31,297 nt of DNA from Treponema sp. Lineage in GTDB: Bacteria > Spirochaetota > Spirochaetia > Treponematales > Treponemataceae. Position numbers and translations under genes: made by a program. This document shows positions 170 to 24,336 of this stretch, one piece after another. Within the stretch, counting starts at the first letter, position 1. The number at the start of each line of letters is the position of its first letter. The notes under the pieces were generated by a model. The model did no database searches. It was given only the letters and a program-made list of their open reading frames with translations, and had not been told where the DNA came from. Where the stretch lies: assembly GCA_031290005.1 (NCBI GenBank), contig JAITOJ010000053.1:1-31297 (forward strand), in the 5' to 3' direction.

Positions 170-1267
170 CTAACCTTCTAACACCACCGCGTCGCGCTGG
201 GCAATCAGGCTCAGTTCCGCTGCTTTGAAAGCGTGTTCCTGGGTCATGGCGTTTTCCGTGCGGTTCAGGCAGTCCAGAATCAACTGACCGAAATAGGGAT
301 ACCCCACTTTGCCGTTCACGTTGTAATACGCCTCTTCCTTGCCGTTCGCCAGAAACACATGCCCGCCGCCAGAATCTTTGATGCCCAGGTTCATATACTT
401 GCGCTGTTCGATAAATCCCTCAGTTCCCAGGATAAAGAGCCTGCCGTCCCCCCACATTTGAAGGCCCTCCGGGGTGAACCAGTCCACCCGGAAGTAACCC
501 GTGGCGTTGTTGTCCAGCACGATTTCCGCGTCCCCGAAATCATCCAGTTCAGGATACTGGGGGTGATTATAATTGGCAATATGACTCCGCGCCACCTTGC
601 CGTCTTTCGCGCCGGTATAATAGAGGATTTGTTCCACGTTATGACTGCCGATGTCGCAGAGGATGCCTCCGTAGTTCTTCTTGATAAAGAACCACTCGGG
701 CCGGCCGCCTCCAAAGCGTACTGACGAACCCAGACGATGAGGCCCGAACCCGATAACCTGTATGACCCTGCCGATAGCCCCCTGCTCAATAAGCTGACCG
801 GCGAACACCGCGGACTCCACGTGAATCCGCTCGCTGTAATAGACCGCGTACTTCTTGCCGGTTTTCTCCGCCATGTCCCGCGCCTGGGAAAGCTGTTCCA
901 GAGTGGTCAGGGGCGCTTTGTCGGTAAAATAATCCTTGCCCGCGGCCATGACCCTCAAACCAAGGGCGCAGCGCTCACTGGTCATAGTTGCCCCGGCAAC
1001 CAGCAAGACTTCCGGGTCATTCAAAACCGCTGCCTCGCTTGCAACGGGTTTTGCGCCCGGAAACGCCTTGGCAAAGTTTTGCATATAGTGCGGGTCAGGG
1101 TCATAGTAGCTTTTAAGCACTCCCCCGGCCTCGATTAACCCATTGCACATACCGTAGATGTGCCCGTGATACAAGCCGACCGCCGCGAATATAAATTCGC
1201 CGGGTTTCACCACCGGGGCAGGTTTCCCCTTGGGCGCGTAAGTCGAACCGTCGCTCACAACTGCCAT
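170..1267 (-). CDS. Gfo/Idh/MocA family oxidoreductase
   Basis: Rossmann-like N-terminus (FAAVGLYHGH), TDKAP motif, GGILCDIGSH; start moved to MAVVSDG (1267), which has an AAGGAG RBS and lies 1 nt after the upstream stop. Confidence 0.88.
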   Translation of the reverse strand: MAVVSDGSTYAPKGKPAPVVKPGEFIFAAVGLYHGHIYGMCNGLIEAGGVLKSYYDPDPHYMQNFAKAFPGAKPVASEAAVLNDPEVLLVAGATMTSERCALGLRVMAAGKDYFTDKAPLTTLEQLSQARDMAEKTGKKYAVYYSERIHVESAVFAGQLIEQGAIGRVIQVIGFGPHRLGSSVRFGGGRPEWFFIKKNYGGILCDIGSHNVEQILYYTGAKDGKVARSHIANYNHPQYPELDDFGDAEIVLDNNATGYFRVDWFTPEGLQMWGDGRLFILGTEGFIEQRKYMNLGIKDSGGGHVFLANGKEEAYYNVNGKVGYPYFGQLILDCLNRTENAMTQEHAFKAAELSLIAQRDAVVLEG

Positions 1268-1268
1268 A

Positions 1269-2444: not shown

Positions 2445-2460
2445 TTTTTCCTCCATGAAT

Positions 2461-4404: not shown

Positions 4405-4413
4405 AGTAAACTA

Positions 4414-6000: not shown

Positions 6001-6145
6001 ACGTTCCTCCATAGTACAGAGATAAATTAATGTTATTTTACTTCACTATCGGGAGTAACCGCAATGGCAAAACACAAGAAATAAAGTACAAATTACAGAT
6101 GAAACACTCAAATTCAAAACTTGAAATTGAACTAAACCACATTCT

Positions 6146-8257: not shown

Positions 8258-8390
8258 GTATGACTCCTTGGGCTTAGAGTATCGAGAAATAATACCATAC
8301 ACAATGGAGAAAAAAAAGAAACATAGTGTAAATTACCGGCTTTTTTGAAAAAAAACCAGAAGCCTTGATTTACACATCAAAACTCCTTCT

Positions 8391-9560
8391 TCAAAATGAT
8401 ACAGATAGTATCTGGCCTAATCCTCGCTCGCCTATTTCCAGGATAAAAACATCAGGTTCCTGAGATAAAATATAATTGTAATTTTTTTTGCCGCCCTCAT
8501 CCCAAACATATTCAGCAGCAGAAAAAATACAAGAAGTAAAAGGCTCAAGAGTCAGAAAGAAAGAATCTCGGAAAATAAGCGCTTTAGGCAGACGGTTATC
8601 CAGGTTTAGCGTACTTGCACTGAACCTCCCCGGTTCAATATCCGCCCGCGCGGCAGTTTCTTCCGCAGTCCGCTTCTCGGTTTTTTTAATATATCTATAG
8701 TGACTTTCCCAACCGTCAAAGGGTTCAATTTTTAGTAATTCAGCAGGATGTATATCTTTTTCCTTAAGAGAAAGATATGCTATACTATCCTCACCGGTGT
8801 CCCGATAAACACTATATTTATATTCTATGTCAGGAATGTTTGGAAAATCCGGTTTTAGTATATTGTATAACAATTGATATACATAATACGCTCCAAGCTC
8901 ATTCCAGTGGGTTCCGTTAGGATAATACAATGGCTGTTCATGCTCAGGTTTTTTTGAAACAAGATAATCTCTGGGGTACATTACTTTTCCCCTCAAATAT
9001 TCAGGCAAGGCATTTATTACCTGATCAGCTTGCGTATTTCCTTCTGGTCTGGGAAACGGATACTTTTCAGGATAAATCGAGTGTTTTTCAGGGGCAATCA
9101 AAAATAAAAATCTAATACCGTGGCTGTCGCAAAAATAATCAATTTCCACGATTTTATCTATTGTCGTCTGCAATTGTTTATCCGTTAGAAGATTTTGTTT
9201 AAGAAAATCAGAAAGGCTATCACCGTTTCGTTTGTTTATGTAAAACAACCAATTGTCTTTTCCCACAAACACATCGTCATTATGTTTATTTTGCAATACA
9301 TAATAACTAAAATTATTCATCATGGTAATATATTGGTCTCTAAAACCAAACCGGTCGTTCAGATATTTATCAATATATCCCGGCATCTTCATAATGGATT
9401 TTACATTTAATTTGCCGTCCGCGACAAGAGAAACAGGGGGAATACTTGCAAGCACTCGTTTTTCCGTCTCCGATATTGTACTTTTTCTATCCATCAAAAT
9501 GAGGGGAACTATAATAATACCAATGAATAAAAATATAAAAATGATGCGCAAAATTTTCAT
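8391..9560 (-). CDS. AlgJ/AlgX/DHHW-like SGNH O-acyltransferase
   Basis: N-terminal TM anchor; VFVGKDNWLFY, APEKHSIYPE, THWNELGAY, IFRDSF; directly downstream of an MBOAT gene. Confidence 0.8.
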   Translation of the reverse strand: MKILRIIFIFLFIGIIIVPLILMDRKSTISETEKRVLASIPPVSLVADGKLNVKSIMKMPGYIDKYLNDRFGFRDQYITMMNNFSYYVLQNKHNDDVFVGKDNWLFYINKRNGDSLSDFLKQNLLTDKQLQTTIDKIVEIDYFCDSHGIRFLFLIAPEKHSIYPEKYPFPRPEGNTQADQVINALPEYLRGKVMYPRDYLVSKKPEHEQPLYYPNGTHWNELGAYYVYQLLYNILKPDFPNIPDIEYKYSVYRDTGEDSIAYLSLKEKDIHPAELLKIEPFDGWESHYRYIKKTEKRTAEETAARADIEPGRFSASTLNLDNRLPKALIFRDSFFLTLEPFTSCIFSAAEYVWDEGGKKNYNYILSQEPDVFILEIGERGLGQILSVSF

Positions 9561-9575
9561 ACCGCCTCCGATCTA

Positions 9576-11021
9576 TCAGAACCTGAAATACAGGAATGGA
9601 TTATATGCATCCACCGCCAGCCTGCCAATGGATAAAAGAAGCAAAGCAATTAAAAGCGTATATTTAACCGCGCTTGTAAATATATTTACCGGGATACGCA
9701 GTTTTCCCCACCAGGGAAAAGCGAAAATCAGGCCGCAGCCCAGGAAAATATAGAACTGGGTGTTGGCTAAAAGAAGCAATTCCACTGATGCCTGGGCTGC
9801 TCTGGTAAAATTCAACAAGCTGGAATAAAATACTAAACTTTCTTTAAGAGTCAGATTAAAGAGCATAAATTCAAAAATTATGAGTATGAAAATAAATACC
9901 CGTTGTAGAATCGTTTTCAGGATAAAGACCGTCTTTCCTTTATTATCAAAGAAGGAGCTTACCTTGCCGCCAACTGCTTTTTCCAGAATAAGCGTTGTGC
10001 CGCAAATCAGGCCAAAAATGATAAAATGATATTCAGCCCCATGCCATAAGCCTATTAAAGCATATACGATAACCAGGTTTACCATCTGCCTGACTTTACC
10101 GCACCGGCTGCCTCCCAGAGGGATGTAAAGATAATCTCTGAACCAGGTGGTAAGGGATATATGCCACCGCCGCCAGAATTCGGTAAACGACTTTGAAGCA
10201 AGAGGATAGTTAAAATTTTCCATTATGTGAAACCCGAACATTTTACCCATTCCGATTGCCATATCAGAGTAGCCGGAGAAATCATAGTAAAGCTGCAATA
10301 AGCTGGATATTACTTCCAAAAGCAGATAGATCGACGGCACACTGGCAAAAGGAAGCGTCAAAACATAATCCACATATTCCGCTAAAATGTTAGCGATCAG
10401 TACTTTTTTTGCAAACCCGATTATAAACCGCTCAATGCCCTGGGTAAATAATTCGGGACTATGCTTACGCTCCCTGATTTGCATGTTTATATCGTGATAT
10501 CTGACAATCGGCCCCGCAATTAACTGGGGGAAAAATGAAATAAATAAACCAAGACTCAGGATATTCCTTTGAACCAGTTCAGGCTTTCTGTATACATCCA
10601 CAAGGTATGAAATTGACTGGAATGTATAGAAGGAAATGCCCAGGGGCAATACAATTTTTGAAACGGTAACCTGAAATTCCGGTACATGAACAATTTTAAG
10701 TATTGAATTCAGTATCTGAGCGGAAAACCCCAAATACTTAAAACAGAACAGCAGCAGTAAATTGATGCTGACCCCTAAGGCAAGGGAAAACTTTCTTTTT
10801 GAAACTGAAAAAAAAGTATTCCCTATCAATAAACCTATATCATAATTCAAGATGATAGAACAGACCATGACAAGAACAAATTTCGGTTCTCCCCAAGCAT
10901 AAAATAGCAAACTTGCGATAAGCAGAATGATGTTTTTCGCCTTTATAAACGGACAGCAATAGTAAACAAGCAGCGTTAAGGGTAAAAAGAGGATAATAAA
11001 GGTTATAGAACTAAAAAGCAT
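9576..11021 (-). CDS. MBOAT family O-acyltransferase (AlgI/PatA type)
   Basis: LPLGISFYTFQ, DFSGYSDMAIG, FWRRWHISL, GLWHG (catalytic His), C-terminal YNPFLYFRF. Confidence 0.95.
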   Translation of the reverse strand: MLFSSITFIILFLPLTLLVYYCCPFIKAKNIILLIASLLFYAWGEPKFVLVMVCSIILNYDIGLLIGNTFFSVSKRKFSLALGVSINLLLLFCFKYLGFSAQILNSILKIVHVPEFQVTVSKIVLPLGISFYTFQSISYLVDVYRKPELVQRNILSLGLFISFFPQLIAGPIVRYHDINMQIRERKHSPELFTQGIERFIIGFAKKVLIANILAEYVDYVLTLPFASVPSIYLLLEVISSLLQLYYDFSGYSDMAIGMGKMFGFHIMENFNYPLASKSFTEFWRRWHISLTTWFRDYLYIPLGGSRCGKVRQMVNLVIVYALIGLWHGAEYHFIIFGLICGTTLILEKAVGGKVSSFFDNKGKTVFILKTILQRVFIFILIIFEFMLFNLTLKESLVFYSSLLNFTRAAQASVELLLLANTQFYIFLGCGLIFAFPWWGKLRIPVNIFTSAVKYTLLIALLLLSIGRLAVDAYNPFLYFRF

Positions 11022-11033
11022 TCAATTTCAACC

Positions 11034-12683
11034 TCATGTAGCAAGACTCTTTGCCTGTACTTCTTTTAACCCCAATTCGCTGAGTTTAAATTTCTGCACC
11101 TTTCCGCTGGGGGTAATGGGGAATGAATCCACAAAAAAAACATATTTTGGAATTTTAAAAAAACTGATTTTGTCGCGGCAAAAGTCTACAATATCTTTTT
11201 CACTGATTGATGCGCCCTCTTTCAAAATAATAAAAGCGCCAATTTCTTCGCCGTATTTTTTTGACGGAATACCCACCGCCTGCACATCCTTTATACCAGG
11301 CATGGTATGTAAAAGATTTTCTACTTCTTTGGGATACACATTTTCACCGCCCCGGATGATTAATTCTTTGATACGCCCCTCTATCACCAGATAACCATCG
11401 GGCAGCAAGGATCCTAAGTCGCCCGTATGGAACCAGCCGTTTGTATCAATGGCATCCCCGGTGGCTTCTTCCATTTTGTAATAGCCTTGCATAACACTAT
11501 AGCCTTTTACACAAATTTCACCCCTTGTATTGACCGGGCATTCGGCGTTCTCTGCGTCACGAATGCTTACCGCGATACCCGGAATGGGGATGCCTATGGT
11601 TTTAAGTTTTTGATCCGAAGGGTCATTTACAAAAGAATTGCAAATAAGCGGAGATGTTTCTGTGAGGCCGTAACCGATAGACAGCCATTCCAAATGCATT
11701 TTTTCTATGAGGTTTTTCGCTAATTCCGGCGGACATAAGGCGCCGCCCATATAGCCGTATTTAAGCTGTGTCGTGCTGAATGTATTAAACAGAGGATGAT
11801 TCAGCATCGCTATATACATAGTCGGCACCGCATATATCATAGTACAGTTCTCTTTTTGAATGGCGGTAAGGCATATAAGCGGATCAAAATTTTCCATAAC
11901 AATTGCTTTGGCCCCGAATAATAAAATCTCAATAATTCCATCGGTAAGCGACATAATATGGAATAAGGGCAGGGGATTCAAAACAACCGCATCTTCATTA
12001 ACATGCGCCATGGTATTGGCATGGCAGGCATTATTGATAATGCTCCGATGGGTAAGCATTGCGCCCTTGGGGTTTCCGGTTGTACCGGAAGTATACATGA
12101 TACAAAGAATATCAGTATGGTGAACTAATGATTCAGCTTTGTTTAGGTCGCCGCCGGCAATCTGCTTCCCCATTTCCAAAAGATTTTTCAGTGTATACAT
12201 TCCAGCGTGAGATGTATCATCGATATTTGCTATCATTTTTAAACAGGGAAATTTATTTGATATAAGATCCCCGGGTTCGGCGTTTTTTAGTTCGGGAATC
12301 AACTGGTATACCATCTCTGTATAATCCAGATCCCGGTGCCGGTCAATGATAAAAAGACCTTTTAGATCCGCCTGGCTGATAACGTACTCAACCTCATTGC
12401 GTTTATAACTTGAATTTATCGGGACAACCACAACTCCTATTCGGGCGGCGGCAAAGAACACCGTAGTCCACTCAGGCACATTGTTTGCCCAAATGCCGAT
12501 ATGGTCTCCTTTCTTAAAACCCGCCGCAAGCAGTCCTTTGGCAAGAGCGTCGGCTTTTTTATCCACATCGCCAAAGGTAAACCGTATGCCCCGATTCGGG
12601 AATACCAGAAATTCTTTGCCGCCGCGTGTTGCGGCCTGTTCCCGCAACGCGGCGCTCAAAGTGATTTCAAGTAATGTATTCAT
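11034..12683 (-). CDS. acyl-CoA synthetase / AMP-binding ligase
   Basis: YTSGTTGNPKG, GYGLTETSP, GWFHTGDLG, IIRGGENVYPKEVE, TPSGKVQKF. Confidence 0.93.
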   Translation of the reverse strand: MNTLLEITLSAALREQAATRGGKEFLVFPNRGIRFTFGDVDKKADALAKGLLAAGFKKGDHIGIWANNVPEWTTVFFAAARIGVVVVPINSSYKRNEVEYVISQADLKGLFIIDRHRDLDYTEMVYQLIPELKNAEPGDLISNKFPCLKMIANIDDTSHAGMYTLKNLLEMGKQIAGGDLNKAESLVHHTDILCIMYTSGTTGNPKGAMLTHRSIINNACHANTMAHVNEDAVVLNPLPLFHIMSLTDGIIEILLFGAKAIVMENFDPLICLTAIQKENCTMIYAVPTMYIAMLNHPLFNTFSTTQLKYGYMGGALCPPELAKNLIEKMHLEWLSIGYGLTETSPLICNSFVNDPSDQKLKTIGIPIPGIAVSIRDAENAECPVNTRGEICVKGYSVMQGYYKMEEATGDAIDTNGWFHTGDLGSLLPDGYLVIEGRIKELIIRGGENVYPKEVENLLHTMPGIKDVQAVGIPSKKYGEEIGAFIILKEGASISEKDIVDFCRDKISFFKIPKYVFFVDSFPITPSGKVQKFKLSELGLKEVQAKSLAT

Positions 12684-12693
12684 ATAATTCTCC

Positions 12694-13002
12694 TTATTTT
12701 AGCCTCTTAAAAGTCATCACATGGACATAATCTTCCTGGTTTATTTGCAGCGTATCACCTTTTATAGAAAACGAAGCCGGCGCCTCCCGTCCCAGTACCA
12801 GTTTATTATCCCCGGTTACAAAATAATTCATAAAAATTTCGTTATTAACATTTAACTCATTGTTTTTTAGAAAAGAAAAATAAACAGTCTGTCCATTTGA
12901 AACGGTTGCCCATGTCCCCAATAATTTATCTTCAGGTTGTGCGCACCCGGTAAAAAAAATCATGGGCAGCGTTAAAAACAACAAAATTGTAACTTTCGTA
13001 AT
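12694..13002 (-). CDS. small hypothetical lipoprotein
   Basis: lipobox FTGC followed by KLLGTW; the track start is TTG 12984, but an SD-positioned in-frame ATT lies at 13002. Confidence 0.65.
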   Translation of the reverse strand: MTKVTILLFLTLPMIFFTGCAQPEDKLLGTWATVSNGQTVYFSFLKNNELNVNNEIFMNYFVTGDNKLVLGREAPASFSIKGDTLQINQEDYVHVMTFKRLK

Positions 13003-13036: not shown

Positions 13037-15274
13037 TTAACGCAAATGATACCAATAGTAAAGCTGCGTAGCGGTAATCGTGTTCCCAAAATATGACGGC
13101 GCCCAAGGCCACATGGCTATATGCGGGAATATATCCGTAAGGAGTTCCTGGGATCCAACACTCGCAACAGAACCGTCGGCCATGGATGTATAGGTCTCAA
13201 AACCCCGGGGGAAAATTTCTTTCAGATGCCCGGTATTAAGCATAAAAGAGAATTTACCATAGGGTGCATCGTTATCTCCCACAACATCGTCCTGCCGACC
13301 GCGCCTGTCTATTGCCTTGGTAACAAGGTTTTTTTTGCCGGTATAGACCGGGTCATAACTCGCCGCCTTATTTTCATACCACTCAATTTGCCACAACTGG
13401 GGCGCTTCGCCGCCCATTTCGGTTGCAAAGAGATTCTGCAATGAGAAGACACCGGGTGTGAAGAATTGGGCCAAGTCAAGACCGTATATCTTAACCTCAG
13501 CAGTATCGAGTGTCGTTGACACAGGCCAATCCCAGCCCGGAGAAGGCCACACCCAATCCGGATCAATAAAGGTATCGGGGATCTTGTTGGGAAAATAGAA
13601 TACGCCGTTGCCCTCAACTGCCGCTTTCACCTGGACAATGCCGTTCTTCGCCCAGTTGTTCTTACTGGCGGCCGCAGGAGACCACGAGCTGGAACCGCTG
13701 CTATTACTGCCGGTTCCATACCAGTGGGACAGAGAATCGTTTATCATGCCAAAGGCCTTGGTAAAGTCCGATTTAGCCCTGGGCAAGGCGGAAGCGTTTC
13801 GTACCCTGAGAAAATTATTCCTGAAGGGCAGCATATTGATAACCGTCGGGTAATCCTTCCAGAGATTCTCCCTGGCTCCGTTCTTAGCCGCAGTATCGAA
13901 CATTTTTTGGAGCACTTCGTCAAGACCATCTTCCGGCACAATCTGTGTAATGAGCCAATTTCGCAAATCTATGGTCAAATCGTAGGCGGAAAGATATTCA
14001 ACCGCGGCCTTAATCGCCTCCAAAGTACCAAAGATGTAATCAAGTTCCGCCTTTCCAACGTAGGTCGTTTCCGGCCCGTAGTAGTCGTCCAGTTCAAACC
14101 GGGTTTTAAGGCCGGAGTGCAATTCAACCTTCGCGTTTGCCGGAAAAGACGCGGCGCGGCTGACAATGGCCTCATAATCCTTGCCGAAGATATCCCGCTG
14201 AATTTTTTCCACCAGAGGATTGAAGCCCACGGTATTGGAAGCAATAATCCCCCAGAAAAGGTGGTTTTTAAGGGTCTGAATATGGGCCGGTTCATGAGAA
14301 ATGGGAAAATCGCTGTAGGGCGTCACAAACCCCCAGCTTGCGGGACTTTGTTTCGGGACGGTAATGTCCCTTCCCTCATAGCTGGTTTTCCCTATGGTAT
14401 AGGTCCCGCTATAGGTTCCCCACCATTTTTCTCCCTCCGTATACCCGTCACAAATCCAATCATCCAGAGTACCAGGGGTTGGAATATGGAAGGTACCCAG
14501 GAGGCTGCGGACATCCGGGTCAATAAGAAGATTGGCTAGTTTTGCCAGGGAAGAATAAAATATGGCTTCCGGGTCCTGGGGATTCTTTTTCCAGGCCTCC
14601 TCATAAAAAACAGACGCCGTATCGTACTGTTTGGCAGTGAGGTAATTCCAGCCGCTTGTCTTGAGTTCGTCAAAATCTTTTGCCACAAATTCAGCCTTCA
14701 CTTCCACATTTTCGGCGGGCATGGTAAAGGTATAGGGCGGAGTATCCGAAAGCGCCGTTTGGTTTACAAAAAGCGTTCCCGCCTTCAGGTCAAACCCGGG
14801 TTCCGGCACCAGAGTCAGGGTAATCGAGGTTCCGGTGGCGGCGGAAAGGGGATTGGAAAAAATGACGCCGTTTTCCAGGCCGGAATCAATATGAATCGAA
14901 TGCTGTCCCTCTGTTACCGGTACAAAAGCCGCAGTGATACGGGTATTGCTCCCAATTGAAGTCTGGTACCGGGTGCCTTTGATATAGAATGTTTTGCCCA
15001 TCAAGTCCGGGGCGTCTTCATTGAAGGATGTAAGGCTGTTCGCTTGCAGGGTATAGCCAGGGTCCGGGTTAATATACACCGTAATCCAGTCTCCGGAGAT
15101 AACGTACTGTTCGCTCAATTTGAGGGAGCCGTTTTGGGGGTTTGGATAGATACGTACCGTATAGACGGATTTGGCGTCCAGCGCCTTCATTGAAATATTC
15201 GAGCAGGCAACAATAACAATAACAACAAGCAGGGCCAGTATCCCACCGCAGGCAATAAGTAGTTTTTTATGCAT
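13037..15274 (-). CDS. large lipoprotein with two InlB-B/bacterial-repeat-like domains and a TPR-like motif
   Basis: signal ending IVAC; two repeats with ITxxxxPxPGY/F; YTFTMPAENVEVKAEF; TPR-like YDTASVFYEEAWKKNPQDPEAIFY. Confidence 0.7.
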   Translation of the reverse strand: MHKKLLIACGGILALLVVIVIVACSNISMKALDAKSVYTVRIYPNPQNGSLKLSEQYVISGDWITVYINPDPGYTLQANSLTSFNEDAPDLMGKTFYIKGTRYQTSIGSNTRITAAFVPVTEGQHSIHIDSGLENGVIFSNPLSAATGTSITLTLVPEPGFDLKAGTLFVNQTALSDTPPYTFTMPAENVEVKAEFVAKDFDELKTSGWNYLTAKQYDTASVFYEEAWKKNPQDPEAIFYSSLAKLANLLIDPDVRSLLGTFHIPTPGTLDDWICDGYTEGEKWWGTYSGTYTIGKTSYEGRDITVPKQSPASWGFVTPYSDFPISHEPAHIQTLKNHLFWGIIASNTVGFNPLVEKIQRDIFGKDYEAIVSRAASFPANAKVELHSGLKTRFELDDYYGPETTYVGKAELDYIFGTLEAIKAAVEYLSAYDLTIDLRNWLITQIVPEDGLDEVLQKMFDTAAKNGARENLWKDYPTVINMLPFRNNFLRVRNASALPRAKSDFTKAFGMINDSLSHWYGTGSNSSGSSSWSPAAASKNNWAKNGIVQVKAAVEGNGVFYFPNKIPDTFIDPDWVWPSPGWDWPVSTTLDTAEVKIYGLDLAQFFTPGVFSLQNLFATEMGGEAPQLWQIEWYENKAASYDPVYTGKKNLVTKAIDRRGRQDDVVGDNDAPYGKFSFMLNTGHLKEIFPRGFETYTSMADGSVASVGSQELLTDIFPHIAMWPWAPSYFGNTITATQLYYWYHLR

Positions 15275-15285
15275 ACATACACCCT

Positions 15286-16791
15286 TTATAAGCTGTAGGT
15301 AAAGGAAATGGGGATGGCAATAACCGGGTCGCCTGTGTATTTGGGCGAATATTTGTATGTCGCGGAGCTGGCGTTATAGCTGTAACGATCACTTCCCGGA
15401 AACATCATGGAGCATCCCATCCTCATCCTTCCGCCGGCGAATCCAAGCTCCCCCCAAAAGGCGAGTCCGAAATCGGTAAATTCACTGACATCGGTAACGG
15501 CCTTATTGGGATTGACGCCTTTCTGAGTCAGCTTGTCCTTCCCGTGAGTTTCCAAGCCGAAATCCACGCCGGCTTTCCAAACGCCTATAGTATAAGAAGG
15601 CATAAGCCAAAAATTCAAATCATATCCTGTTTCCGCTGTTTTATCGGAACTTTCTTTTTTGCCGCCAAAGGAAAAGTCCGCGCGGGCCGTGAGATTGAGA
15701 GCAGACAAGAAAACCGGCGTCCAGGAACCGGCAAGAGCGATAACAAAGGGATCCTGAATTTCATATTCGTTTTTATTCTGATTCGTGATAGGCTCATAAG
15801 CCTTGCCGTCGGTACCCACAACACGAGGATACACTTCAAGATTTATGGATTTTGTGGTATATGCAAAGGGAATCGTTGCGCCCAGATCTATCCTTACCGC
15901 CTTAAACCGGTCAAAGAGAAAAGCCGCCTGGATTACATCGCTGTCCCTGTTTGTATTCAGTCCAATGGCAAGCTTCTTTTCGACATTTACTACGGCTGCT
16001 GAATTTCCTATTTCACTCCATCTAAACACAGCCCGGTTGTTTCCGATGAACTGCACCCGGGCAAGGCCGGCATCAGGAATTTTCCAGCCGACGGCCACCT
16101 GAATGGCCTTATATACGTCAAGGGCGCTCGGAACACGGTCTCCGTCATATTCGGAATAGCTTTCATCATACTTGGTGGAAAGGGTGCTGTTGTCTTCGTT
16201 ATTAAACAAATTGAGAATAGCCCGCATATTGCTTCCCGGCGTCCCCGGCGCGCTTGAACCGAAAGCGCCCTGTACGGTAAATCCCTGGAACAGCGGCAGA
16301 CTGTCAAAAGTAACAAAAGGTTCTATTTTAAAATACGCGCCGGCAAAAGCGTCAAATCGCTGGAAGATATTGTCTTCCCCCTTGCCGCCGTTGGGAAGTA
16401 TCCAGGCGTTGAATTCGGAAGCGCCGAATTTTCCCCGGAGATCTTCCTCCTTGAAGAAACCCGCGGTTAAAGTGAAGGGCTTGAAAGGCCGGACCCAAAC
16501 TTTCGCGTTGTCCCCGATTCCCGCGGTTATCGCGCTGCCCGCATAGTTGTAGCCCCCGGAAAGGTCTATCTTGAAACCGATTTTTTCAGAAGGGGCTATT
16601 CCGTTCACGGTAAAGCCGATGCTGGGGTTGTCGGATGAAGTGTAGGTAATGGCCGAGACAGCCGAATGATCTCCGGAAAAGGCGATGGGAGTCACAACCC
16701 CGCGGCCCCAGGCCGAAAAATGTATTTCCCCATACAAAGAAGACGCAAGGGTAATAAAACAAAAAAATAATACATACCGGATATGTTTCAT
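15286..16791 (-). CDS. putative outer-membrane beta-barrel protein
   Basis: Sec signal without lipobox; alternating hydrophobic strands (GFTVNG, IGFKIDLSG, VWVRPF, FTLTAGFF); C-terminal strand IPISFTYSL. Confidence 0.6.
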   Translation of the reverse strand: MKHIRYVLFFCFITLASSLYGEIHFSAWGRGVVTPIAFSGDHSAVSAITYTSSDNPSIGFTVNGIAPSEKIGFKIDLSGGYNYAGSAITAGIGDNAKVWVRPFKPFTLTAGFFKEEDLRGKFGASEFNAWILPNGGKGEDNIFQRFDAFAGAYFKIEPFVTFDSLPLFQGFTVQGAFGSSAPGTPGSNMRAILNLFNNEDNSTLSTKYDESYSEYDGDRVPSALDVYKAIQVAVGWKIPDAGLARVQFIGNNRAVFRWSEIGNSAAVVNVEKKLAIGLNTNRDSDVIQAAFLFDRFKAVRIDLGATIPFAYTTKSINLEVYPRVVGTDGKAYEPITNQNKNEYEIQDPFVIALAGSWTPVFLSALNLTARADFSFGGKKESSDKTAETGYDLNFWLMPSYTIGVWKAGVDFGLETHGKDKLTQKGVNPNKAVTDVSEFTDFGLAFWGELGFAGGRMRMGCSMMFPGSDRYSYNASSATYKYSPKYTGDPVIAIPISFTYSL

Positions 16792-16808
16792 GCTATGTTC
16801 CTCATCTT

Positions 16809-16857
16809 AAAAAAAATAAAACAGAAAACAGGGAACGAATTTCTCCGTTCCCTGTTT
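16809..16857 (-). terminator. intrinsic terminator after the CE15-like gene
   Basis: 12-bp stem aaacagggaacg/cgttccctgttt (16826-16837/16846-16857) followed on the minus strand by a T-rich tract. Confidence 0.75.
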
Positions 16858-16887
16858 CTTACTTCGTAATACAACCAAAAGGCACTA

Positions 16888-19023
16888 TTACAGCGCTTCT
16901 GGTGTGTCGATTAAGCCTCTCCAGTCCATGGGTTTGAACCGGGGAACAGTAGGCGCCGCCGCCGGAGTTTTCCAGCCGGTATAGGTAACCGTTACCGACG
17001 AAGGAATCGTGGTACCATCGCCGGTTACAGGCGGATTGGGAACCGTCACTCTATCGCTGCTGGTATTGTATTGGGCTCCGCCATAGGTCCAGGGCTTGGG
17101 CCGGTTCACTTCGTCCGCTTCATAGGCGGCGATAAGCGCGTCCGGCAGCCTGCTCTTTACACGATCCGCGACAGAGGGATGGTTGGGTCTTCCCCAATTC
17201 ACGCGGTAATAGTCAAAACGTCCAAGGGGGTCATCCACATGGTATGCGGGATCCCTGAACTTGAAGAGGTTGTAGTCACTGGGAGCAACAGTACCGCTGT
17301 CGGGCAGAGCCTCGCCGCCGGCGATACCGGCCTTGGCGTCCATGTCCGCAAAAATCTTGCTCGCATGGTAGTTCCGGTCAGGCGCTTCGTTCCCAGTGTT
17401 CGATCCATGGGTTCCCCAAGTGAATATCGCGCCGTTTCGCCAGATATATTTGTACTCGTTCCCTTCCACTTCGCCGAGGAACTTGTACACATCATCAATA
17501 ATGACCCAGTTGGCAAACTGAGAGTCTGGATTGTTCCGGGGAACGCCAAGACCGTCCTGGAACAGGATGCCCCGGGGCGCCATGAGCGCGGAAAGATAAT
17601 GCTGGTCAAAGGGGATGGTGCAGAGAATGCCATAGGGAGACCTGAATTCGTTCCCCGTTACGTGGTCCATATCAAGACCGTAGTGCAGGTCCTGGAATTC
17701 CCGGAAACGTACCGAGAACCAGCCGGGGGTCTCGTTACGGCCTTCGGAAAGGCTCTGAATGCCGCCCCAGTAGCCATTGTTGCCTGAATACCATGAACTT
17801 GGGCACTGCCATCCCACATAGGGGGTGTTATCTTCGTTGTTTCCCAGGAATGGGGACCGTTCATAGCTTTCAAAATACGGGGACCAGCCGCGTACCGTCC
17901 GGTATCGGAAATTGTCGGCATTTCCGGCTGAAGGCACAACCGCAGGGCCGTTGCCCGGGGTTTCCTGACCATCCAGCACTTTTTTGACATACCAAGCCTT
18001 GCCCTGTAGTTGGGAATAATCCATAACCCCGGGCGCGTTCAGCGGAAGCGGGTCAGCGGGAAGATTGTTTTCCCGGTAACCGGAGGGAGAAATAAAGCGT
18101 TCCAGGGCGGGGCCGCCGGAACCGGCTGAACCGATTGCCACATGGCCCACCTTTGCGCCGCCCCTGCCTTCCGCGAAAGACGCGATACACTCAGCGGCTT
18201 TTCCGCCTCGGGAATACCCGGTAATACCAACCTTGTTCGGGTCGTACCAGCCCCGGAAGGCTTTTTCGGTTTCCGCGTCAATCGTGCCGTCCCCATTCGA
18301 ATCTATCCCTTCCATACCGGTCAGGACAACGCTCATGCCCCAGGCATAGGACATATTGCCCGAAGGCGCGTTCGTATCGGTATGGTTAATACCAAAAAGG
18401 GTGCATACTGGGCCGGAACCATCGCTTTCAGAGGCAAAGGTGGCGTTATTAAAGGTGCCGGTTCCGCCGGTCCAGTTCGTGCCGCTGGAACCGAAATACA
18501 GCCCCAGGTGTCCGCGATCCTCATCGGCCTTGGTTCCAGGAAGGGTCGTGTTGATGGTAAACTCAAAAGACCGCGTCTGGTACGTTACGGTGAAGGTTGT
18601 ATTGGCATCCCCCGAGTTTGACAAGGTAATATGGACCCCGTCTTCTTCCCTCAGAGAGGGCATAGGGCCGTATTCATAGTATTGCAGGATGCGGGAGATC
18701 TCCTTCCGTCGTTCTTCCCAGTCTTCCTTGGTAACAACCTTGTTGCCGTTGGCAAAGTGGAACAGGTCCGGAAACGCGTGCTGGTGCCCCAGCGCGTTCC
18801 ACACCGCTGTTGTAGGCATTGCCTCAAAGCTGGAAGCGTCAAAGCGGTAACCCGTGTAGCTGGGGTCAGGAACCCCAAAATTGCCGCCCAATGACCCGCC
18901 GCCCGGTATTCCGCCCTTGGGTGTATAAATACCGCTGGGAGTCGCCGCCTCGTTTTCGCAGGCGGTAAAAAAGACAAGCGCCGCCATAAGGGCGCAAGCC
19001 ACAAACATGAATTTCTTCATCAT
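16888..19023 (-). CDS. CE15 glucuronoyl-esterase-like lipoprotein (divergent)
   Basis: lipobox FTAC; PDLFHFANG..V.TKEDWEERRKEI, GITGYSRGGKAA (nucleophile), GWFS..F, PFDQHYLSALMAPR, GTH; GGAGG before ATG 19023. Confidence 0.78.
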   Translation of the reverse strand: MMKKFMFVACALMAALVFFTACENEAATPSGIYTPKGGIPGGGSLGGNFGVPDPSYTGYRFDASSFEAMPTTAVWNALGHQHAFPDLFHFANGNKVVTKEDWEERRKEISRILQYYEYGPMPSLREEDGVHITLSNSGDANTTFTVTYQTRSFEFTINTTLPGTKADEDRGHLGLYFGSSGTNWTGGTGTFNNATFASESDGSGPVCTLFGINHTDTNAPSGNMSYAWGMSVVLTGMEGIDSNGDGTIDAETEKAFRGWYDPNKVGITGYSRGGKAAECIASFAEGRGGAKVGHVAIGSAGSGGPALERFISPSGYRENNLPADPLPLNAPGVMDYSQLQGKAWYVKKVLDGQETPGNGPAVVPSAGNADNFRYRTVRGWSPYFESYERSPFLGNNEDNTPYVGWQCPSSWYSGNNGYWGGIQSLSEGRNETPGWFSVRFREFQDLHYGLDMDHVTGNEFRSPYGILCTIPFDQHYLSALMAPRGILFQDGLGVPRNNPDSQFANWVIIDDVYKFLGEVEGNEYKYIWRNGAIFTWGTHGSNTGNEAPDRNYHASKIFADMDAKAGIAGGEALPDSGTVAPSDYNLFKFRDPAYHVDDPLGRFDYYRVNWGRPNHPSVADRVKSRLPDALIAAYEADEVNRPKPWTYGGAQYNTSSDRVTVPNPPVTGDGTTIPSSVTVTYTGWKTPAAAPTVPRFKPMDWRGLIDTPEAL

Positions 19024-19051
19024 AATCAAAAACCTCCAAAAGTTTTTTGTA

Positions 19052-19080
19052 CGGGTTCCCGCGATTTCCGCGGGAACCCG
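19052..19080. other. perfect 12-bp GC-rich stem-loop between two lipoprotein genes
   Basis: cgggttcccgcg-atttc-cgcgggaacccg; no U-tract on the transcribed minus strand. Confidence 0.7.
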
Positions 19081-19105
19081 GTTGCGCAATTCAATTTTGA
19101 ATTAC

Positions 19106-21055
19106 TCAGTTGACAGTCACCTTGATCAGGTAATATCGGATCAGACCGCTTTCCTCCGGAGTTATCCGGACAGCAAGGAAATTATTTCTATAAACATCAG
19201 TTTCCACAGGGAACCCATTGGTTATAGCGCCCGTGCCCTGCCATGCAGCAGGCATGTGCCAGTTCCATGCCTCAAAGCCCGGGGATGAGCCCGACCATTC
19301 TTCGTAGGCAATGCCATATTCCGCTGTCGCACCACTTGACAGACCCTGGAGTATAATTTCTCCAGCGCTTTGTGCACCAGTAAGGGTAATCGCGCCGTTG
19401 CCTTCGGTAGGCGGAGCATCGGGAGCAGCTAATTTGGGTGTTCCAACACTGGATGACGCAACCCCGCCTACAGTAACGCCGGTAATTTCAGCGGCATCGT
19501 TCCCGTAGACTAGAGCAACCTTGTAGTATTGAGCAGGTCCCTGATCATCTTGAGTTAGCCGGACATACACAAACTGAGCGGAGGCAATATTTGCAAGCTC
19601 ACCAGAAGTATTGGTCCAGTTGGTAACATTCGTGTTAGCCGCGAGAGCAATCGCATAGGCGATACCTGTTGTCCCACTCGAGACTGTCGCATTGACCGTC
19701 GGACTCCAGGGGCCTGCCGCTGACATGGTATATATAACCGCGGTTGTACCGGTTACGGCGAGATTGGCATCAGGCAATGGGGTTACGGTACCCCCGGACA
19801 GAGTCAGGCCAGTAAGAGCGGCCACGCCTCCTACTCTTATCTGGAACGAGTACCAGTTTTTGTCGAGAAGCCCGTTGGTAACCTCAACCGCTATAAATTC
19901 GTTGGTGGGAAGGTTTTGGAAACTAGGACTTGTCTGATAGACCAGGGTGGTGTGTCCGGTAGATTCAACATCTTCCTGCGCCGCGTTCCAATCGGTGTGG
20001 CCATAGCGGACGGTCGCTCCCGGGGCCACTGTCCCGATAGCCACCGTCGCGTTAACGCTTGCAGCGCCAACCGTGGAAAGGATGTTTTTGTAACCGTTGC
20101 CATCCGCCGCAAGGTTCGCGGCATTACCTCTGTTCTCACCGCCGCCAAAACCATTGGTTCCCGCAGCGCCGACCGTAAAGGGAACGGGAGTTCCGCTGTT
20201 CCCCTGAATGGTTACATCACCAATCGCAAAGCTGGTGGTTTTTTGAACAAGTTTTACCTTGTAGTAGACGGTCTCGCCATTTACCGAATCGGCACTCGTC
20301 GCTTTAATGTACAGGTAATTGCCGTCAACCGGAGTAATCGTTTCCGGATTGGTGTATCCAGCGGGGAAGAGGGTGGCGGCGGAAGCGCCCGGGGCGCCAA
20401 GAGCTACCAGGACGGTAGAATCGGGGTCTTCGGGGGTGGCCGCAAGCGCCAAGGCTGTTGAGGCCTGATTATCCCCAAACCAGATTTCGCCTTCCGTGGC
20501 TTGGGCCAGATCGGTGTGGTAATTGCCAAGCCCCGTTCCGTATTGCAGGATAGGCCGCCCGTTTGCGAGTGTGCCGCCCACAGAGGATCTGCCGCCCAGG
20601 GTAAGGTCCTGAACCACCGGGGTGGTTGTCCGTACCTGAATGGCGTAGAGTTTGTAGGCATCGTGATTTTCAGAGAAAACTTCCACCCAAAGGTAATCAA
20701 GCACATCGAAGCTGAATGTTGTGGTAGTATCAACAAAATCCGGCATCACAGACGGCTTTGCGGCCGCAAGATAGACTTTCTGCCCATCCTGGCCTTTGTT
20801 TACCACAACCGTGGCGCCAGTCATCGAAGCGGCAGGCACAAAAACCGTGCCGGCATTTTCCGATTCCTTTGCTTCCATCCAGTCCATTGTGGGGGTACCC
20901 AAGACTACGGTCTTCCCCGCGACAGTCACAGACGCAACTTCGGCATTACTGGACAGCTCTTCCGCGTCCTGCGAGCAGCCAACAGCAACAAGACCAACCA
21001 CAGCCGCCGCTATCAGCAGCAACGCTATGCCGTTCTTCGCGTTTTTCAGTTTCAT
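19106..21055 (-). CDS. surface lipoprotein with about five tandem cadherin-like beta-sandwich domains
   Basis: lipobox AVGC; repeated domain ends YAIQV, YYKVKLV, WYSFQIRV, YYKVALV, YYLIKVTV; repeated starts AEVASVTV, LTGLTL, AEITGVTV. Confidence 0.7.
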   Translation of the reverse strand: MKLKNAKNGIALLLIAAAVVGLVAVGCSQDAEELSSNAEVASVTVAGKTVVLGTPTMDWMEAKESENAGTVFVPAASMTGATVVVNKGQDGQKVYLAAAKPSVMPDFVDTTTTFSFDVLDYLWVEVFSENHDAYKLYAIQVRTTTPVVQDLTLGGRSSVGGTLANGRPILQYGTGLGNYHTDLAQATEGEIWFGDNQASTALALAATPEDPDSTVLVALGAPGASAATLFPAGYTNPETITPVDGNYLYIKATSADSVNGETVYYKVKLVQKTTSFAIGDVTIQGNSGTPVPFTVGAAGTNGFGGGENRGNAANLAADGNGYKNILSTVGAASVNATVAIGTVAPGATVRYGHTDWNAAQEDVESTGHTTLVYQTSPSFQNLPTNEFIAVEVTNGLLDKNWYSFQIRVGGVAALTGLTLSGGTVTPLPDANLAVTGTTAVIYTMSAAGPWSPTVNATVSSGTTGIAYAIALAANTNVTNWTNTSGELANIASAQFVYVRLTQDDQGPAQYYKVALVYGNDAAEITGVTVGGVASSSVGTPKLAAPDAPPTEGNGAITLTGAQSAGEIILQGLSSGATAEYGIAYEEWSGSSPGFEAWNWHMPAAWQGTGAITNGFPVETDVYRNNFLAVRITPEESGLIRYYLIKVTVN

Positions 21056-21153
21056 GCTTGCCTCCTAAACGCCGCTGTTCCATTTTCACAACCAACGACC
21101 AAAAGATCGAATGCCGATAAAACACCGAACATTCCCAAAACCCGTTTTTTCAT
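21052..21153 (-). CDS. 33-aa ORF that is essentially a lipoprotein signal peptide (MKKRVLGMFGVLSAFDLLVVGCENGTAAFRRQA); relic or micro-lipopeptide
   Basis: AGGAGG RBS, ATG 21153, lipobox VVGC; its TGA overlaps the ATG of the next gene (ATGA); not in the ORF track. Confidence 0.6.
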   Translation of the reverse strand: MKKRVLGMFGVLSAFDLLVVGCENGTAAFRRQA

Positions 21154-21307
21154 ATTTCCTCCTGAAAGATGAGTTGTTTTCCCATATACTGATATGGTAG
21201 GATTATGGTAATTCCGAAAAACGGACTATCACAGAGAATAAATCGCTGAAACATTGTATGAATTCATGATAAAATTCGTAAATGTAATGAAGTTCCTCGC
21301 CGCTTTG

Positions 21308-21337
21308 TTGACAGCGGATTTTTTTCTGTGCTAGACT
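21308..21337 (+). promoter_or_regulatory. promoter TTGACA-N18-TAGACT for the AraC gene
   Basis: near-consensus boxes upstream of AAGGAG and the GTG start. Confidence 0.65.
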
Positions 21338-21370
21338 CAACCTTCAAGCGGAAATAAAAGGAGTGGCGCC

Positions 21371-22171
21371 GTGCTGACTGAAATCAACGGAGAGCTGATA
21401 CCTCAAATAGAGTACGTGGTTTTCAGAAAATGTACTCCCGCCTGGCGGATGCCCCGGCATATATTGACAGCCTGGGATATAACCTATGTTGCGGAAGGCC
21501 GTGCGCAGTACAGTATCGACGAGGAAGAATACAACCTGACCGCGGGGGATTTGATATGTCTGCCTCCCCGCACGCGCCGGGAAGGCGTCACCGTGCCGGA
21601 CCACCTGATGCAGTGTTTTTCCGTGAATTTCCGCCTGACCAATCTGAAAGGCGAAAACGTCCGGCTCCCCTTCCCCATCCAGAGCCATATCGGTCTGGCA
21701 AAAGATGTTATCCATCTGTTCCACGACCTTTCTTTTGTCTGGCTGGATAAACAGCCGGGCTACGCCCTCAAAACCCGGGGCATCTTTCTGCTGATTTTGC
21801 ACCGTCTGTTTGAGCTGGCCTCAAGCATCCCGTCCGGTTCGGGAGAAACCGACGCCCGAATCCAGAAAATAACCAGATACATCGCGAAACATTATGCTGA
21901 AAGGATTTTGGTGAAAAACATGGCCGCCCTGGTGGGCCTGCACACGGGTTATTTCGGAGCGCTCTTCCACCAGGAAACCGGCGTCACCATGAACCAGTAC
22001 ATTATCCGCACCCGGGTCCGCAACGCGGAAAATATGCTCCGCAGCGGGGAATACAAGGTCAAGGAAGTGGCCGAAGCCTGCGGCTACTGCGACGACCTGC
22101 ACTTCTTCAAACAATTCAAGGCGGTTATGGGAATGCCGCCGTCGGCCTGCATCCCCAAACGCAACAATTAG
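21371..22171 (+). CDS. AraC family transcriptional regulator
   Basis: N-terminal cupin-like domain; C-terminal double HTH (YFGALFHQETG; KVKEVAEACGYCDDLHFFKQFK). Confidence 0.95.
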   Translation: MLTEINGELIPQIEYVVFRKCTPAWRMPRHILTAWDITYVAEGRAQYSIDEEEYNLTAGDLICLPPRTRREGVTVPDHLMQCFSVNFRLTNLKGENVRLPFPIQSHIGLAKDVIHLFHDLSFVWLDKQPGYALKTRGIFLLILHRLFELASSIPSGSGETDARIQKITRYIAKHYAERILVKNMAALVGLHTGYFGALFHQETGVTMNQYIIRTRVRNAENMLRSGEYKVKEVAEACGYCDDLHFFKQFKAVMGMPPSACIPKRNN

Positions 22172-22533: not shown

Positions 22534-22569
22534 CAATTAGCCCTTCACCGCGCCGATGGTCACACCGGC
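22534..22569 (+). repeat. 36-bp direct repeat, copy 2 (native permease 3' end)
   Basis: caattagcccttcaccgcgccgatggtcacaccggc. Confidence 0.95.
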
Positions 22570-23412
22570 AATAAAATACCGTTGGAGCCAGGGATACACC
22601 ACCAGAATCGGCACCGTGGCGAACATGACCGCCGCGGCCTTCATACCTTCGCTTGCCTGGGGCACGCCTCCGGCGATACCTTCCTGGGTGGCGATTTCTA
22701 TTGAAGAAAGATTGTTGATGATGTTATAGAGTTTGAGCTGAATGGGATGGAAATCCGGCTTGGTGAGATACAAAAGGGCGTCGGAAAAACCGTTCCACCG
22801 GCCCACCGCGTAAAACAGGGCCAGCGTCGCCAGCACCGGGGCCGACAGGGGCAGATAAATCCGCACCAGCACCGTGAACGGATTTGCCCCGTCCAGTTCC
22901 GCTGATTCCCGAAGGCTGTCCGGCACACTGTAGAAAAAGCTCCGCAGAATAATCATGTTGAACACCGAAAGGCAGCCCGGCAGAATGAGCACCAGGGGAT
23001 TGTTAATCAGGCCCAGGTCTTTTATCAGAATATAGTTCGGGATGGTTCCGGCGTTGAAATACATGGTAAAGATAATCAGGGTGTTGAGGAGCTTGCGGCC
23101 TTTCAGCCCGTCGTAGATAAGGGGATAGGCGCACAGGATGGTGATGACCAGGGAAAAAACCGTACAAATCACCGTGAGCATCGCGGTCCAGCCCATGGAG
23201 CGGGAAAACGACGGGTCTTTGAACACGTAGCGGTAGGAATCCAGCGATGGGTCAACCGGCAGAAACGTTACCTGGCGGTTCACAATCGCCAGAGGCGAAC
23301 TCAGGGAACGGGCCAGAATATTGAGCATGGGCATGAGGCACACGAAAATAACCAGCAGACAAACAACGGCGATACTGATGTCGCCCACTTTGGTAAACTT
23401 TGATTTAATCAT
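22537..23412 (-). CDS. carbohydrate ABC transporter permease (LplC-like)
   Basis: EAA motif SLRESAELDGAN; YAVGRWNGF; YPWLQRYFIAGVTIGAVKG. Confidence 0.95.
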   Translation of the reverse strand: MIKSKFTKVGDISIAVVCLLVIFVCLMPMLNILARSLSSPLAIVNRQVTFLPVDPSLDSYRYVFKDPSFSRSMGWTAMLTVICTVFSLVITILCAYPLIYDGLKGRKLLNTLIIFTMYFNAGTIPNYILIKDLGLINNPLVLILPGCLSVFNMIILRSFFYSVPDSLRESAELDGANPFTVLVRIYLPLSAPVLATLALFYAVGRWNGFSDALLYLTKPDFHPIQLKLYNIINNLSSIEIATQEGIAGGVPQASEGMKAAAVMFATVPILVVYPWLQRYFIAGVTIGAVKG

Positions 23413-23430
23413 ACATTCCTCCTTACTACC

Positions 23431-24336
23431 TTACCAAATACCGCGTTCGCCGAAACGCTTTGCCAGAGCGTTCGCGGCCAGCAGGAAAATAACGCAGATA
23501 ACCGACTGGAACAGCCCAATCGCCGCGGTATAGGAAAACTGGAATGACCGGATACCCACCCGGTACACCAGGGTGCTGATAACGTCCGACACCTGGATAA
23601 CCAGACTGTTGCCCAGCGTATAGGGCCGGTCGAACTCGCTGCCCAGGATCCGCCCGATGTTCATGATGAGCAGGGTGACGATGGTGGGGCGCAGTCCCGG
23701 CAGGGTAACGTGCCAGATTTTGCGCCATCTGCCCGCGCCGTCCACCTCGGCCGCCTCGTACACTTCCGGGTTGATGCCCGTGATTGCCGCCAGGTAGATA
23801 ATCGTGCCCCACCCCATTTCTTTCCACACCCCCAGGCCCACATAGGTGGCCACCCAGAGGTTTTTGTCCATCAGAAAGTCGATGGGGCCGATGCCGAATT
23901 TGCGGAGGGCAATGTTCACAATCCCCGCGCCGGGGGCAAAAAGCTGGGAGGCGATACCGCTGATGATAATCCACGACAGGAAGTGGGGCAGATACACCAC
24001 GGTCTGGGTGAACTTTTTGTACCAGAAAAAGGTCAGTTCGTTCAGCAGAATCGCCAGAATAATGGGCGCGGGAAAGCCTATAATCAAGTCAAGAAAGTTG
24101 AGCGTCAGGGTGTTCCGCAGGGCATTGTAAAAATCCCGGGAATGAAAAGCCTGGTCAAACCACTTTGCCCCCACCCAGTCCGAAGACCACACGCCTTTGA
24201 ACATATTGTAGTCCTTAAAGGCGATCACAATGTTGGTCATGGGCACATACCGGAACACCACGAAAAACGCCAAAGGCAGCGCCAGCATGGCATACAGCAT
24301 CCAGGTACGCTTGAAGTACGTTATCCGATTTGTCAT
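23431..24336 (-). CDS. carbohydrate ABC transporter permease (LplB-like)
   Basis: EAA motif EVYEAAEVDGAGRW; YLPHFLSW; WKEMGWGTIIYLAAI. Confidence 0.95.
   Translation of the reverse strand: MTNRITYFKRTWMLYAMLALPLAFFVVFRYVPMTNIVIAFKDYNMFKGVWSSDWVGAKWFDQAFHSRDFYNALRNTLTLNFLDLIIGFPAPIILAILLNELTFFWYKKFTQTVVYLPHFLSWIIISGIASQLFAPGAGIVNIALRKFGIGPIDFLMDKNLWVATYVGLGVWKEMGWGTIIYLAAITGINPEVYEAAEVDGAGRWRKIWHVTLPGLRPTIVTLLIMNIGRILGSEFDRPYTLGNSLVIQVSDVISTLVYRVGIRSFQFSYTAAIGLFQSVICVIFLLAANALAKRFGERGIW

Follow-up and report, generated by a model that had tools for sequence, protein, structure and literature searches.

In a stretch of 31,297 nucleotides from a termite-gut Treponema (assembly GCA_031290005.1, contig JAITOJ010000053.1; hereafter the window), we found a conserved four-gene cassette that would serve in foraging for wood glycans at the outer membrane. 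It encodes a beta-sandwich lipoprotein (P0004), a lipoprotein of esterase family CE15 (P0003), a porin-type beta-barrel (P0002) and a lipoprotein with InlB-B and TPR repeats (P0001). With a probability of roughly 60%, we read the cassette as a module for the capture, de-esterification and uptake of glucuronoxylan fragments, feeding an importer made of a solute-binding protein (SBP) and ATP-binding cassette (ABC) permeases under AraC control. The four genes occupy positions 13037-21055 of the minus strand and are divergent from the gene of an AraC-family regulator. The original prediction, made from the DNA letters, had described this same-strand run as a five-domain beta-sandwich lipoprotein, a CE15-like lipoprotein, a predicted beta-barrel and a repeat/TPR lipoprotein, with sugar ABC permeases next door and without a TonB-dependent receptor; our analysis confirmed this inventory gene by gene. 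The window is contig C143 of a metagenome-assembled genome (MAG) of 1.53 Mb (160 contigs, 52% complete). The single public sequencing run containing its DNA is a termite-gut metagenome, which may be the source of the contig; no RNA run was listed as carrying the cassette or the barrel gene. The homologues of its proteins, named Treponema sp. or Spirochaetia bacterium, originate from termite-gut MAGs.

The cassette recurs as a unit. It is present in complete form three times in this partial genome (contigs C143, C6 and C117), with 32-54% identity between the copies. Other termite-gut spirochaete MAGs, at least 14 in number, hold about 25 further cassettes with this gene order, and all homologues come from this one habitat. 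The neighbourhoods were obtained by exact-protein look-up and a scan of species-representative genomes, and were then typed by tblastn. Nineteen cassettes were complete (beta-sandwich lipoprotein, CE15, barrel, TPR lipoprotein), and 6 further ones were cut by contig ends or slightly varied. One variant (L015) has a different lipoprotein, of 423 aa, between CE15 and barrel. Wherever the sequence reaches, the barrel has CE15 upstream and the TPR lipoprotein directly downstream; 0-20 nt lie between the last two genes in the five cassettes whose gene coordinates were called, and 11 nt separate the end of the barrel gene from the start of P0001 in the window. Recurrence of a four-gene order in so many cassettes is therefore far beyond chance. 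The components also diversify in step: across 22 cassettes (pairwise identities 26-93%), the identity matrices of barrel, CE15 and TPR lipoprotein were correlated with Spearman coefficients of 0.88-0.94, and none of 999 permutations gave a value as high. As the cassettes share ancestry, this correlation reflects linkage without shuffling rather than separate events of co-evolution. The module is passed on and diversifies as a unit. A separate observation concerns locus L042 (BNVD01000058.1, positions 3-11149), a near-perfect inverted duplication, head to head, of a unit comprising MBOAT, TPR lipoprotein, barrel and a truncated CE15, which could reflect an artefact of assembly or a genuine palindromic duplication.

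P0003 was assigned to CE15 from several matches. Its reading frame is open up to a TTG at 19089, the likely start being the ATG at 19023 (MMKKF). The protein scored 41.3 bits against Pfam GCE_fung (cut-off 27) and matched the solved CE15 structure 4g4g with an E value of 5e-15, and a profile of nine sequences of its family matched the CE15 module 7nn3 at 1e-59, and 6ru2, 4g4g and 3pic at 1e-34 to 1e-40. CE15 enzymes hydrolyse glucuronoyl esters. The nucleophile motif of P0003 is GYSRGGK, and Cys44 (the lipobox cysteine), Ser293, Arg294 and Gly296 are invariant across nine cassette CE15 homologues. We also compared 20 CE15 sequences that had been selected by GxSRxG[K/H], so that the motif is present in 20/20 by design. 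The lipobox Cys was retained across this set, and a His following the last core strand was found in all 20 (WG[TDQL]HG in the long clade, corresponding to His561 of P0003, and IPHS in the short clade). The His of the GSHA motif of 7nn3 aligned to the short-clade His column in a profile alignment; MAFFT set the two clades 6 columns apart at this residue, with L044 (IYDQTHG) bridging them. A probable catalytic His thus placed by alignment is conserved in the family.

The nearest solved relative of P0003 is the CE15 module of a xylanase-esterase, Xyn10C-GE15A of Caldicellulosiruptor kristjanssonii (PDB 7nn3). The two share the GxSRxGK, PFDQH and APR motifs, the conserved His and the lack of a fungal-type Glu. 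Unlike 7nn3, P0003 is lipid-anchored, carries an insertion of ~155 aa between the nucleophile region and PFDQH as well as a C-terminal extension, and has Tyr instead of Cys before the nucleophile Ser. Asp512 (FQDG, past the APRG strand), present in 18/20 sequences, is a candidate replacement for the triad acid. A fourth CE15 gene of the genome, at a contig end (C97, 4932-5240), may belong to a fourth cassette.

P0004 has the lipobox AVGC and five repeats of 110-138 aa each, delimited by motif alignment, with an N-terminal [VI]xx[VL]T[VLI]xG motif and a C-terminal strand of the YYxVxV type. It had no match in Pfam; its neighbours in the ESM Atlas were cadherin-like beta-sandwich, DUF5018 and DUF6242 proteins, which we take as a lead only. 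Homologues were the first gene in other cassettes (E 1e-29 to 1e-157). P0004 is a putative surface glycan-binding or stalk protein. At one locus (L018, 2683-6279) we found a CE15 protein of 1198 aa whose N-terminal ~640 aa weakly resemble the P0004 repeats (E 1e-4 to 1e-7), and which is, as far as this similarity tells, a natural fusion of a beta-sandwich array to the esterase.

The third protein, P0002, carries a type-I signal peptide and was modelled confidently by AlphaFold2 as a porin-type barrel (pLDDT 86.7, pTM 0.82). The closest matches of the model were the 18-stranded sugar channels LamB (structural match value 22.4; 343 residues aligned, root-mean-square deviation 4.5 A) and ScrY (21.9), and MOMP (20.9), AlgE (20.2) and OccK2 with glucuronate (20.0) also matched; identity to these proteins was 7-11%. 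Sequences of the family terminate in ...SFTYS[F/L], a beta-signal of typical form, and in barrel size, signal peptide and C-terminal beta-signal P0002 agrees with the 18-stranded-porin fold. No Pfam or NCBIfam match was obtained at E <= 0.1, which places the protein outside the LamB, OprD, KdgM and Alginate_exp families, and no PDB sequence matched at E <= 1. The 115 matches of the family were all unnamed proteins of termite-gut Treponema or Spirochaetia.

Distant paralogues of the barrel are encoded elsewhere in the same genome (hidden Markov model (HMM) E values of 1e-42 to 1e-97). Two of them lie in tandem on contig C105 (L012, 2089-14682) within a mannan locus (CBM27/GH26-CBM/GH26/CIA30/GH5/SBP/permease), and another on contig C42 (L013, 442-7276), with a GH18 chitinase gene on one side and two unannotated proteins of 379 and 990 aa on the other. 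The barrel family therefore marks glycan loci beyond the CE15 cassette in the termite-gut clade. With P0002 as query, 40 relatives of the genome gave no cassette, one same-family genome (G008) giving a single weak barrel match, and a sample of 400 Spirochaetota genomes gave distant barrels only. At the three loci inspected, such distant barrels of other spirochaete genera stand alone, outside contexts of carbohydrate-active enzymes (CAZymes). For this reason we limit the claim of recruitment into glycan loci to the termite-gut clade, to which it looks specific, and we dropped the idea that the whole barrel superfamily is a glycan-locus marker.

P0001 has the lipobox IVAC, a Pfam match to Flg_new_2 and a weak one to TPR. 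Its model (pLDDT 89.3, pTM 0.86) consists of two InlB-B-repeat beta domains followed by a TPR-containing helical/mixed domain of ~550 aa. With the whole model as query, Foldseek lists from PDB, AFDB, VIA-wide and Atlas contained no SusD chain. A complex prediction for L015, whose proteins were within the size limit, combined the barrel and the helical part of the partner lipoprotein and scored 0.00, which counts neither for nor against binding. Distant relatives of the C-terminal domain of P0001 (24-27% identity), with Big_2 Ig-like N-termini, occur at L058 (1637-5236), L059 (2077-5421) and L060 (265-3855), one of these loci also having a GH28 gene. Each is followed by a conserved unannotated protein of 359-404 aa that ends in ...SLY[GA]S[IL][VA]I[RH] and did not match the barrel HMM. 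A general pairing of TPR lipoprotein and barrel beyond the cassette was therefore unsupported, the partner of the Big_2-type relatives not being barrel-HMM-positive.

The regulator has the domain composition of the AraC/XylS family (Pfam AraC_binding 4e-10, HTH_18 2.9e-16, HTH_AraC 1e-14), and an AraC gene is also found next to the upstream end of the cassette, in one orientation or the other, in L035, L037, L047, L050 and the JGI contig L5kmDliK. The intergenic region contains promoter-like sites at 21308-21337 (plus strand) and 21282-21253 (minus strand), and AGGAGG stands 6 nt ahead of the ATG of P0004. A repeat search of this region for an AraC operator found no direct repeats. Between the CE15 and barrel genes of the window there is a hairpin with a 15-bp GC-rich stem, then a T run. 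A hairpin and T run directly upstream of the barrel gene were found in 8/9 cassettes folded (besides the window, L011, both cassettes of L014, L015, L016, L017 and L018), with stems of 11-15 bp and unrelated sequences. This conservation suggests two transcription units, or a terminator/attenuator, and the hairpin would uncouple the enzyme and binding-protein genes from those of the barrel and the TPR lipoprotein.

The features of the window are listed in the table below. The functional locus probably extends past 13037-22171 to the SBP, the SASA-type esterase and the GFO oxidoreductases at 170-6012. Between them and the cassette lies a block of ligase, MBOAT and AlgX-like genes whose GC fraction is 0.37-0.43, versus 0.48-0.57 in the cassette; a CotH/LTD protein sits between this block and the SBP. 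None of the major open reading frames (ORFs) of the window matched a TonB-dependent receptor (TonB_dep_Rec, Plug). The sole ORF resembling such a receptor found in the genome (716 aa; contig C49, 3133-3960) scored 28 bits, barely above the Pfam cut-off.

Table. Features of the window, with positions, strand and type of match
Feature	Position	Strand	Evidence
Two GFO/IDH/MocA sugar oxidoreductases	170-2456	-	Pfam, NCBIfam
SASA-type carbohydrate esterase with GH2_N-like sugar-binding domain	2461-4404	-	Pfam SASA 3.8e-18
Family-1 extracellular solute-binding protein, 532 aa	4414-6012	-	Pfam SBP_bac_1
CotH-kinase-family protein with lamin-tail domain (LTD), 718 aa	6146-8302	-	
96-aa lipoprotein, fatty-acyl-CoA-ligase-like enzyme, MBOAT, AlgX-like SGNH protein	8391-12984	-	Pfam, NCBIfam
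P0001, InlB-B-repeat/TPR lipoprotein, 745 aa	13037-15274	-	
P0002, outer-membrane beta-barrel, 501 aa, spirochaete porin family without Pfam model	15286-16791	-	
Hairpin and T run between CE15 and barrel genes	16825-16858	-	
P0003, CE15-family lipoprotein	16888-19023	-	Pfam, PDB, profile
P0004, five-repeat beta-sandwich lipoprotein, 649 aa	19106-21055	-	Lipobox, motif alignment
Intergenic control region between AraC gene and first cassette gene (P0004)	21056-21370	none	
AraC-family regulator	21371-22171	+	AraC_binding (cupin) and HTH_18, Pfam
Two ABC sugar permeases (BPD_transp_1), convergent with AraC gene	22537-24336	-	Pfam 7e-15, 1e-17

A census of 91 flanking ORFs at 24 loci showed which families recur next to the cassette. 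SBP_bac_1 was the most frequent (4 members), followed by AraC, AMP-binding, MBOAT and AlgX (3 each) and by CE4 (polysaccharide deacetylase) and SASA (2 each); no glycosyltransferase or synthase was found in the window or among the recurring families (25 families listed). Homologues of the SBP are found close to the cassette in C6, L017 and L049, and those of the SASA esterase directly downstream of it in L015, L037 and L5kmDliK and upstream in L043. A 176-kb JGI contig carries a cassette whose neighbours are GH67 (alpha-glucuronidase), GH39, a SASA esterase, a GFO oxidoreductase and a two-component system for sugar sensing; after the C6 copy come an SBP, a GH2 and a 7TMR-DISM cyclase.

Genes for the ligase, the MBOAT or both adjoin the cassette at no fewer than six further loci, whose barrels are as little as 35% identical: L016 (13611-18453), L045 (10967-15282), L038 (8333-8962), L043 (8817-9311), L050 (1519-4665; here at the cassette's other end, with the strand reversed) and L042 (at both ends). 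AlgX-like identity was confirmed for a gene of L016 and for three flanking ORFs. The MBOAT block is missing from most cassettes. Its recurrence suggests a functional link to the cassette and not a chance insertion; the block perhaps O-acylates a glycan or envelope component, and the low-GC block may be an accessory module. We rejected the 96-aa protein as a DltC-like carrier: it is a small lipoprotein (lipobox FFTGC) and had no PP-binding match.

Taken as a glucuronoxylan module, the cassette would work as follows. P0004 and P0001 would hold the substrate or scaffold a complex at the outer membrane, where the lipid-anchored CE15 enzyme would hydrolyse esters on (4-O-methyl)glucuronic acid side chains. 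The 18-strand-like porin would admit the resulting acidic xylo-oligosaccharides to the periplasm, and the family-1 SBP and the ABC permeases would carry them into the cell. The SASA-type esterase, a GH67-type glucuronidase (seen in relatives) and the GFO oxidoreductases would complete the breakdown, and the divergent AraC regulator would control expression. Glucuronoxylan catabolism fits because the context of the relatives adds GH67, GH39, SASA, CE4, SBPs and AraC; GH67 requires that the uronic acid side chain be free and sit at the end of the chain. The original prediction had proposed a spirochaete analogue of a polysaccharide utilization locus (PUL) that binds, de-esterifies and imports uronic-acid oligosaccharides, and it finds support in the co-conservation of the genes, in the CE15 motif and His and in the catabolic neighbours, the steps from binding to import being inferences. 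None of the refuting outcomes named there that computation can reach was observed.

Several points weigh against this reading. In all cassette CE15 proteins the column of the canonical (fungal-type) catalytic Glu holds Ser or Ala, and the placement of the catalytic His of P0003 is alignment-dependent, via the intermediate sequence L044. Lipoproteins of Treponema are often periplasmic, and the surface location of those described here is putative. GH67 was seen at one related locus only. The permeases of the window have no adjacent SBP, the SBP lying 7 kb away past the inserted low-GC block. Finally, the four genes may not share one transcript, because the terminator-like hairpin splits the CE15 gene from the barrel gene.

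The same architecture might act on another ester-bearing or uronate glycan, such as pectin, a fungal or microbial exopolysaccharide or acylated oligosaccharides, which we consider unlikely, though it deserves to be taken seriously. The missing canonical acid and the large insertions (one of ~155 aa) of the CE15-like enzyme point in this direction, as do the multiple diverged copies per genome, which suggest several specificities, the recurrent adjacency of the acyl-CoA ligase/MBOAT/AlgX block and the scarcity of GH67; moreover, a published fungal CE15 was inactive on standard substrates (PMC10233622). Yet 7nn3, from a xylanase-esterase, also lacks the canonical Glu, holding Ala at this column by alignment, and the SASA, GH39 and GH67 neighbours together with the wood-feeding habitat of the hosts fit xylan. 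We regard export as improbable. According to this explanation, the barrel and the TPR lipoprotein would be AlgE/AlgK-like, and the MBOAT/AlgX-like block would O-acylate an exported polymer that the CE15-like esterase trims. It would account for the adjoining barrel and TPR-lipoprotein genes, for the AlgE fold match of the barrel and for the MBOAT and AlgX-like genes that lie beside the cassette in the window as at six further loci. It is opposed by the absence of a glycosyltransferase or synthase in the window and among the families recurring in the 91 flanking ORFs, by recurrent neighbours that belong to uptake and catabolism (SBP, permeases, AraC, esterases, GH67/GH39), by the lack of an MBOAT block in most cassettes and by the barrel paralogues in the GH26/GH5 and GH18 loci.

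Mere synteny, that is, a general porin and unrelated lipoproteins inherited together without a common function, appears very improbable. The distant barrel relatives of other genera, standing alone outside CAZyme loci, would agree with it, and the complex prediction gave no verdict on a contact. On the other hand, about 25 cassettes, as well as three paralogous copies of one genome, hold to the gene order at identities as low as 26-37%, the beta-sandwich array and CE15 are fused in L018, and the barrel and TPR-lipoprotein genes are nearly contiguous. A more far-reaching proposal than the glucuronoxylan module, which we put forward tentatively and consider rather doubtful, is that the cassette is a TonB-independent counterpart of SusCD, in which a spirochaete-specific porin physically paired with the TPR/InlB-repeat lipoprotein would recruit a tethered enzyme and a beta-sandwich binder. 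If this is true, the counterpart would be a modular glycan importer of the outer membrane, with barrel paralogues serving mannan and chitin and the CE15 version attacking lignin-carbohydrate esters in wood.

CE15 enzymes are thought to cut the esters that join glucuronoxylan to lignin and that add to the recalcitrance of wood. In the cassette, three families without a Pfam model (the barrel, the C-terminal domain of P0001 and the P0004 array) are locked to such an esterase. If confirmed, the system would represent a third outer-membrane route for glycan foraging, beside SusCD/TonB and the stand-alone sugar porins of Proteobacteria. It would also supply glucuronoyl esterases that carry a lipid anchor and are adapted to natural lignocellulose. 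In wood-feeding termites, Spirochaetes count among the principal degraders of hemicellulose (PMC6298952, PMC11481507), and in the searchable literature we found no description of how their substrates pass the outer membrane; the cassette is a concrete, testable candidate for this passage. In the searchable literature on CE15, porins, PULs and the outer membrane in termite spirochaetes we found no description of the cassette either.

Among known systems, the closest in the same organisms are CAZyme clusters of termite-gut Spirochaetes, which a 2020 paper likens to Gram-positive PULs with ABC transporters (Commun Biol 2020, PMC7264248). As described there, these 'Gram-positive-type' clusters in termite-gut Treponema have, like our loci, CAZyme genes beside ABC carbohydrate transporters and regulators. 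The passages of that paper on the outer membrane mention no outer-membrane component for the spirochaete clusters, and the cassette adds this layer. Pairs of the AlgE/AlgK type (BcsC, PgaA, PelB) also combine an 18-strand-like barrel with a TPR lipoprotein, and MBOAT/AlgX-like genes lie near a minority of cassettes; unlike these pairs, the cassette comes without a synthase, a cyclic di-GMP receptor or precursor genes, and its neighbours are catabolic or serve uptake.

The SusC/SusD PULs of Bacteroidota resemble the cassette, itself a putatively co-regulated cluster, in having an outer-membrane channel, several lipoproteins (enzyme, TPR, beta-sandwich), downstream catabolic genes and multiple diverged copies per genome. 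They differ in that the channel of the cassette is a porin-type barrel and not a TonB-dependent SusC, that no SusD family match was found, that uptake would proceed through an SBP and ABC permeases, that the core enzyme is an esterase and not a glycoside hydrolase, and that the phylum is Spirochaetota. The porin regulons of Proteobacteria (LamB with MalE/FGK; ScrY; ChiP with ABC; KdgM with TogMNAB) likewise link a substrate-specific, 18-strand-like porin to an ABC importer that depends on a binding protein and to a regulator responding to sugar. In contrast to theirs, the porin of the cassette falls outside the LamB, ScrY, ChiP and KdgM sequence families and is locked to three lipoproteins, one of them an enzyme; to our knowledge, nothing like this lock accompanies LamB or ChiP. 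In its architecture, the cassette is closer to the porin-based sugar regulons, while in function it resembles a Bacteroidota PUL.

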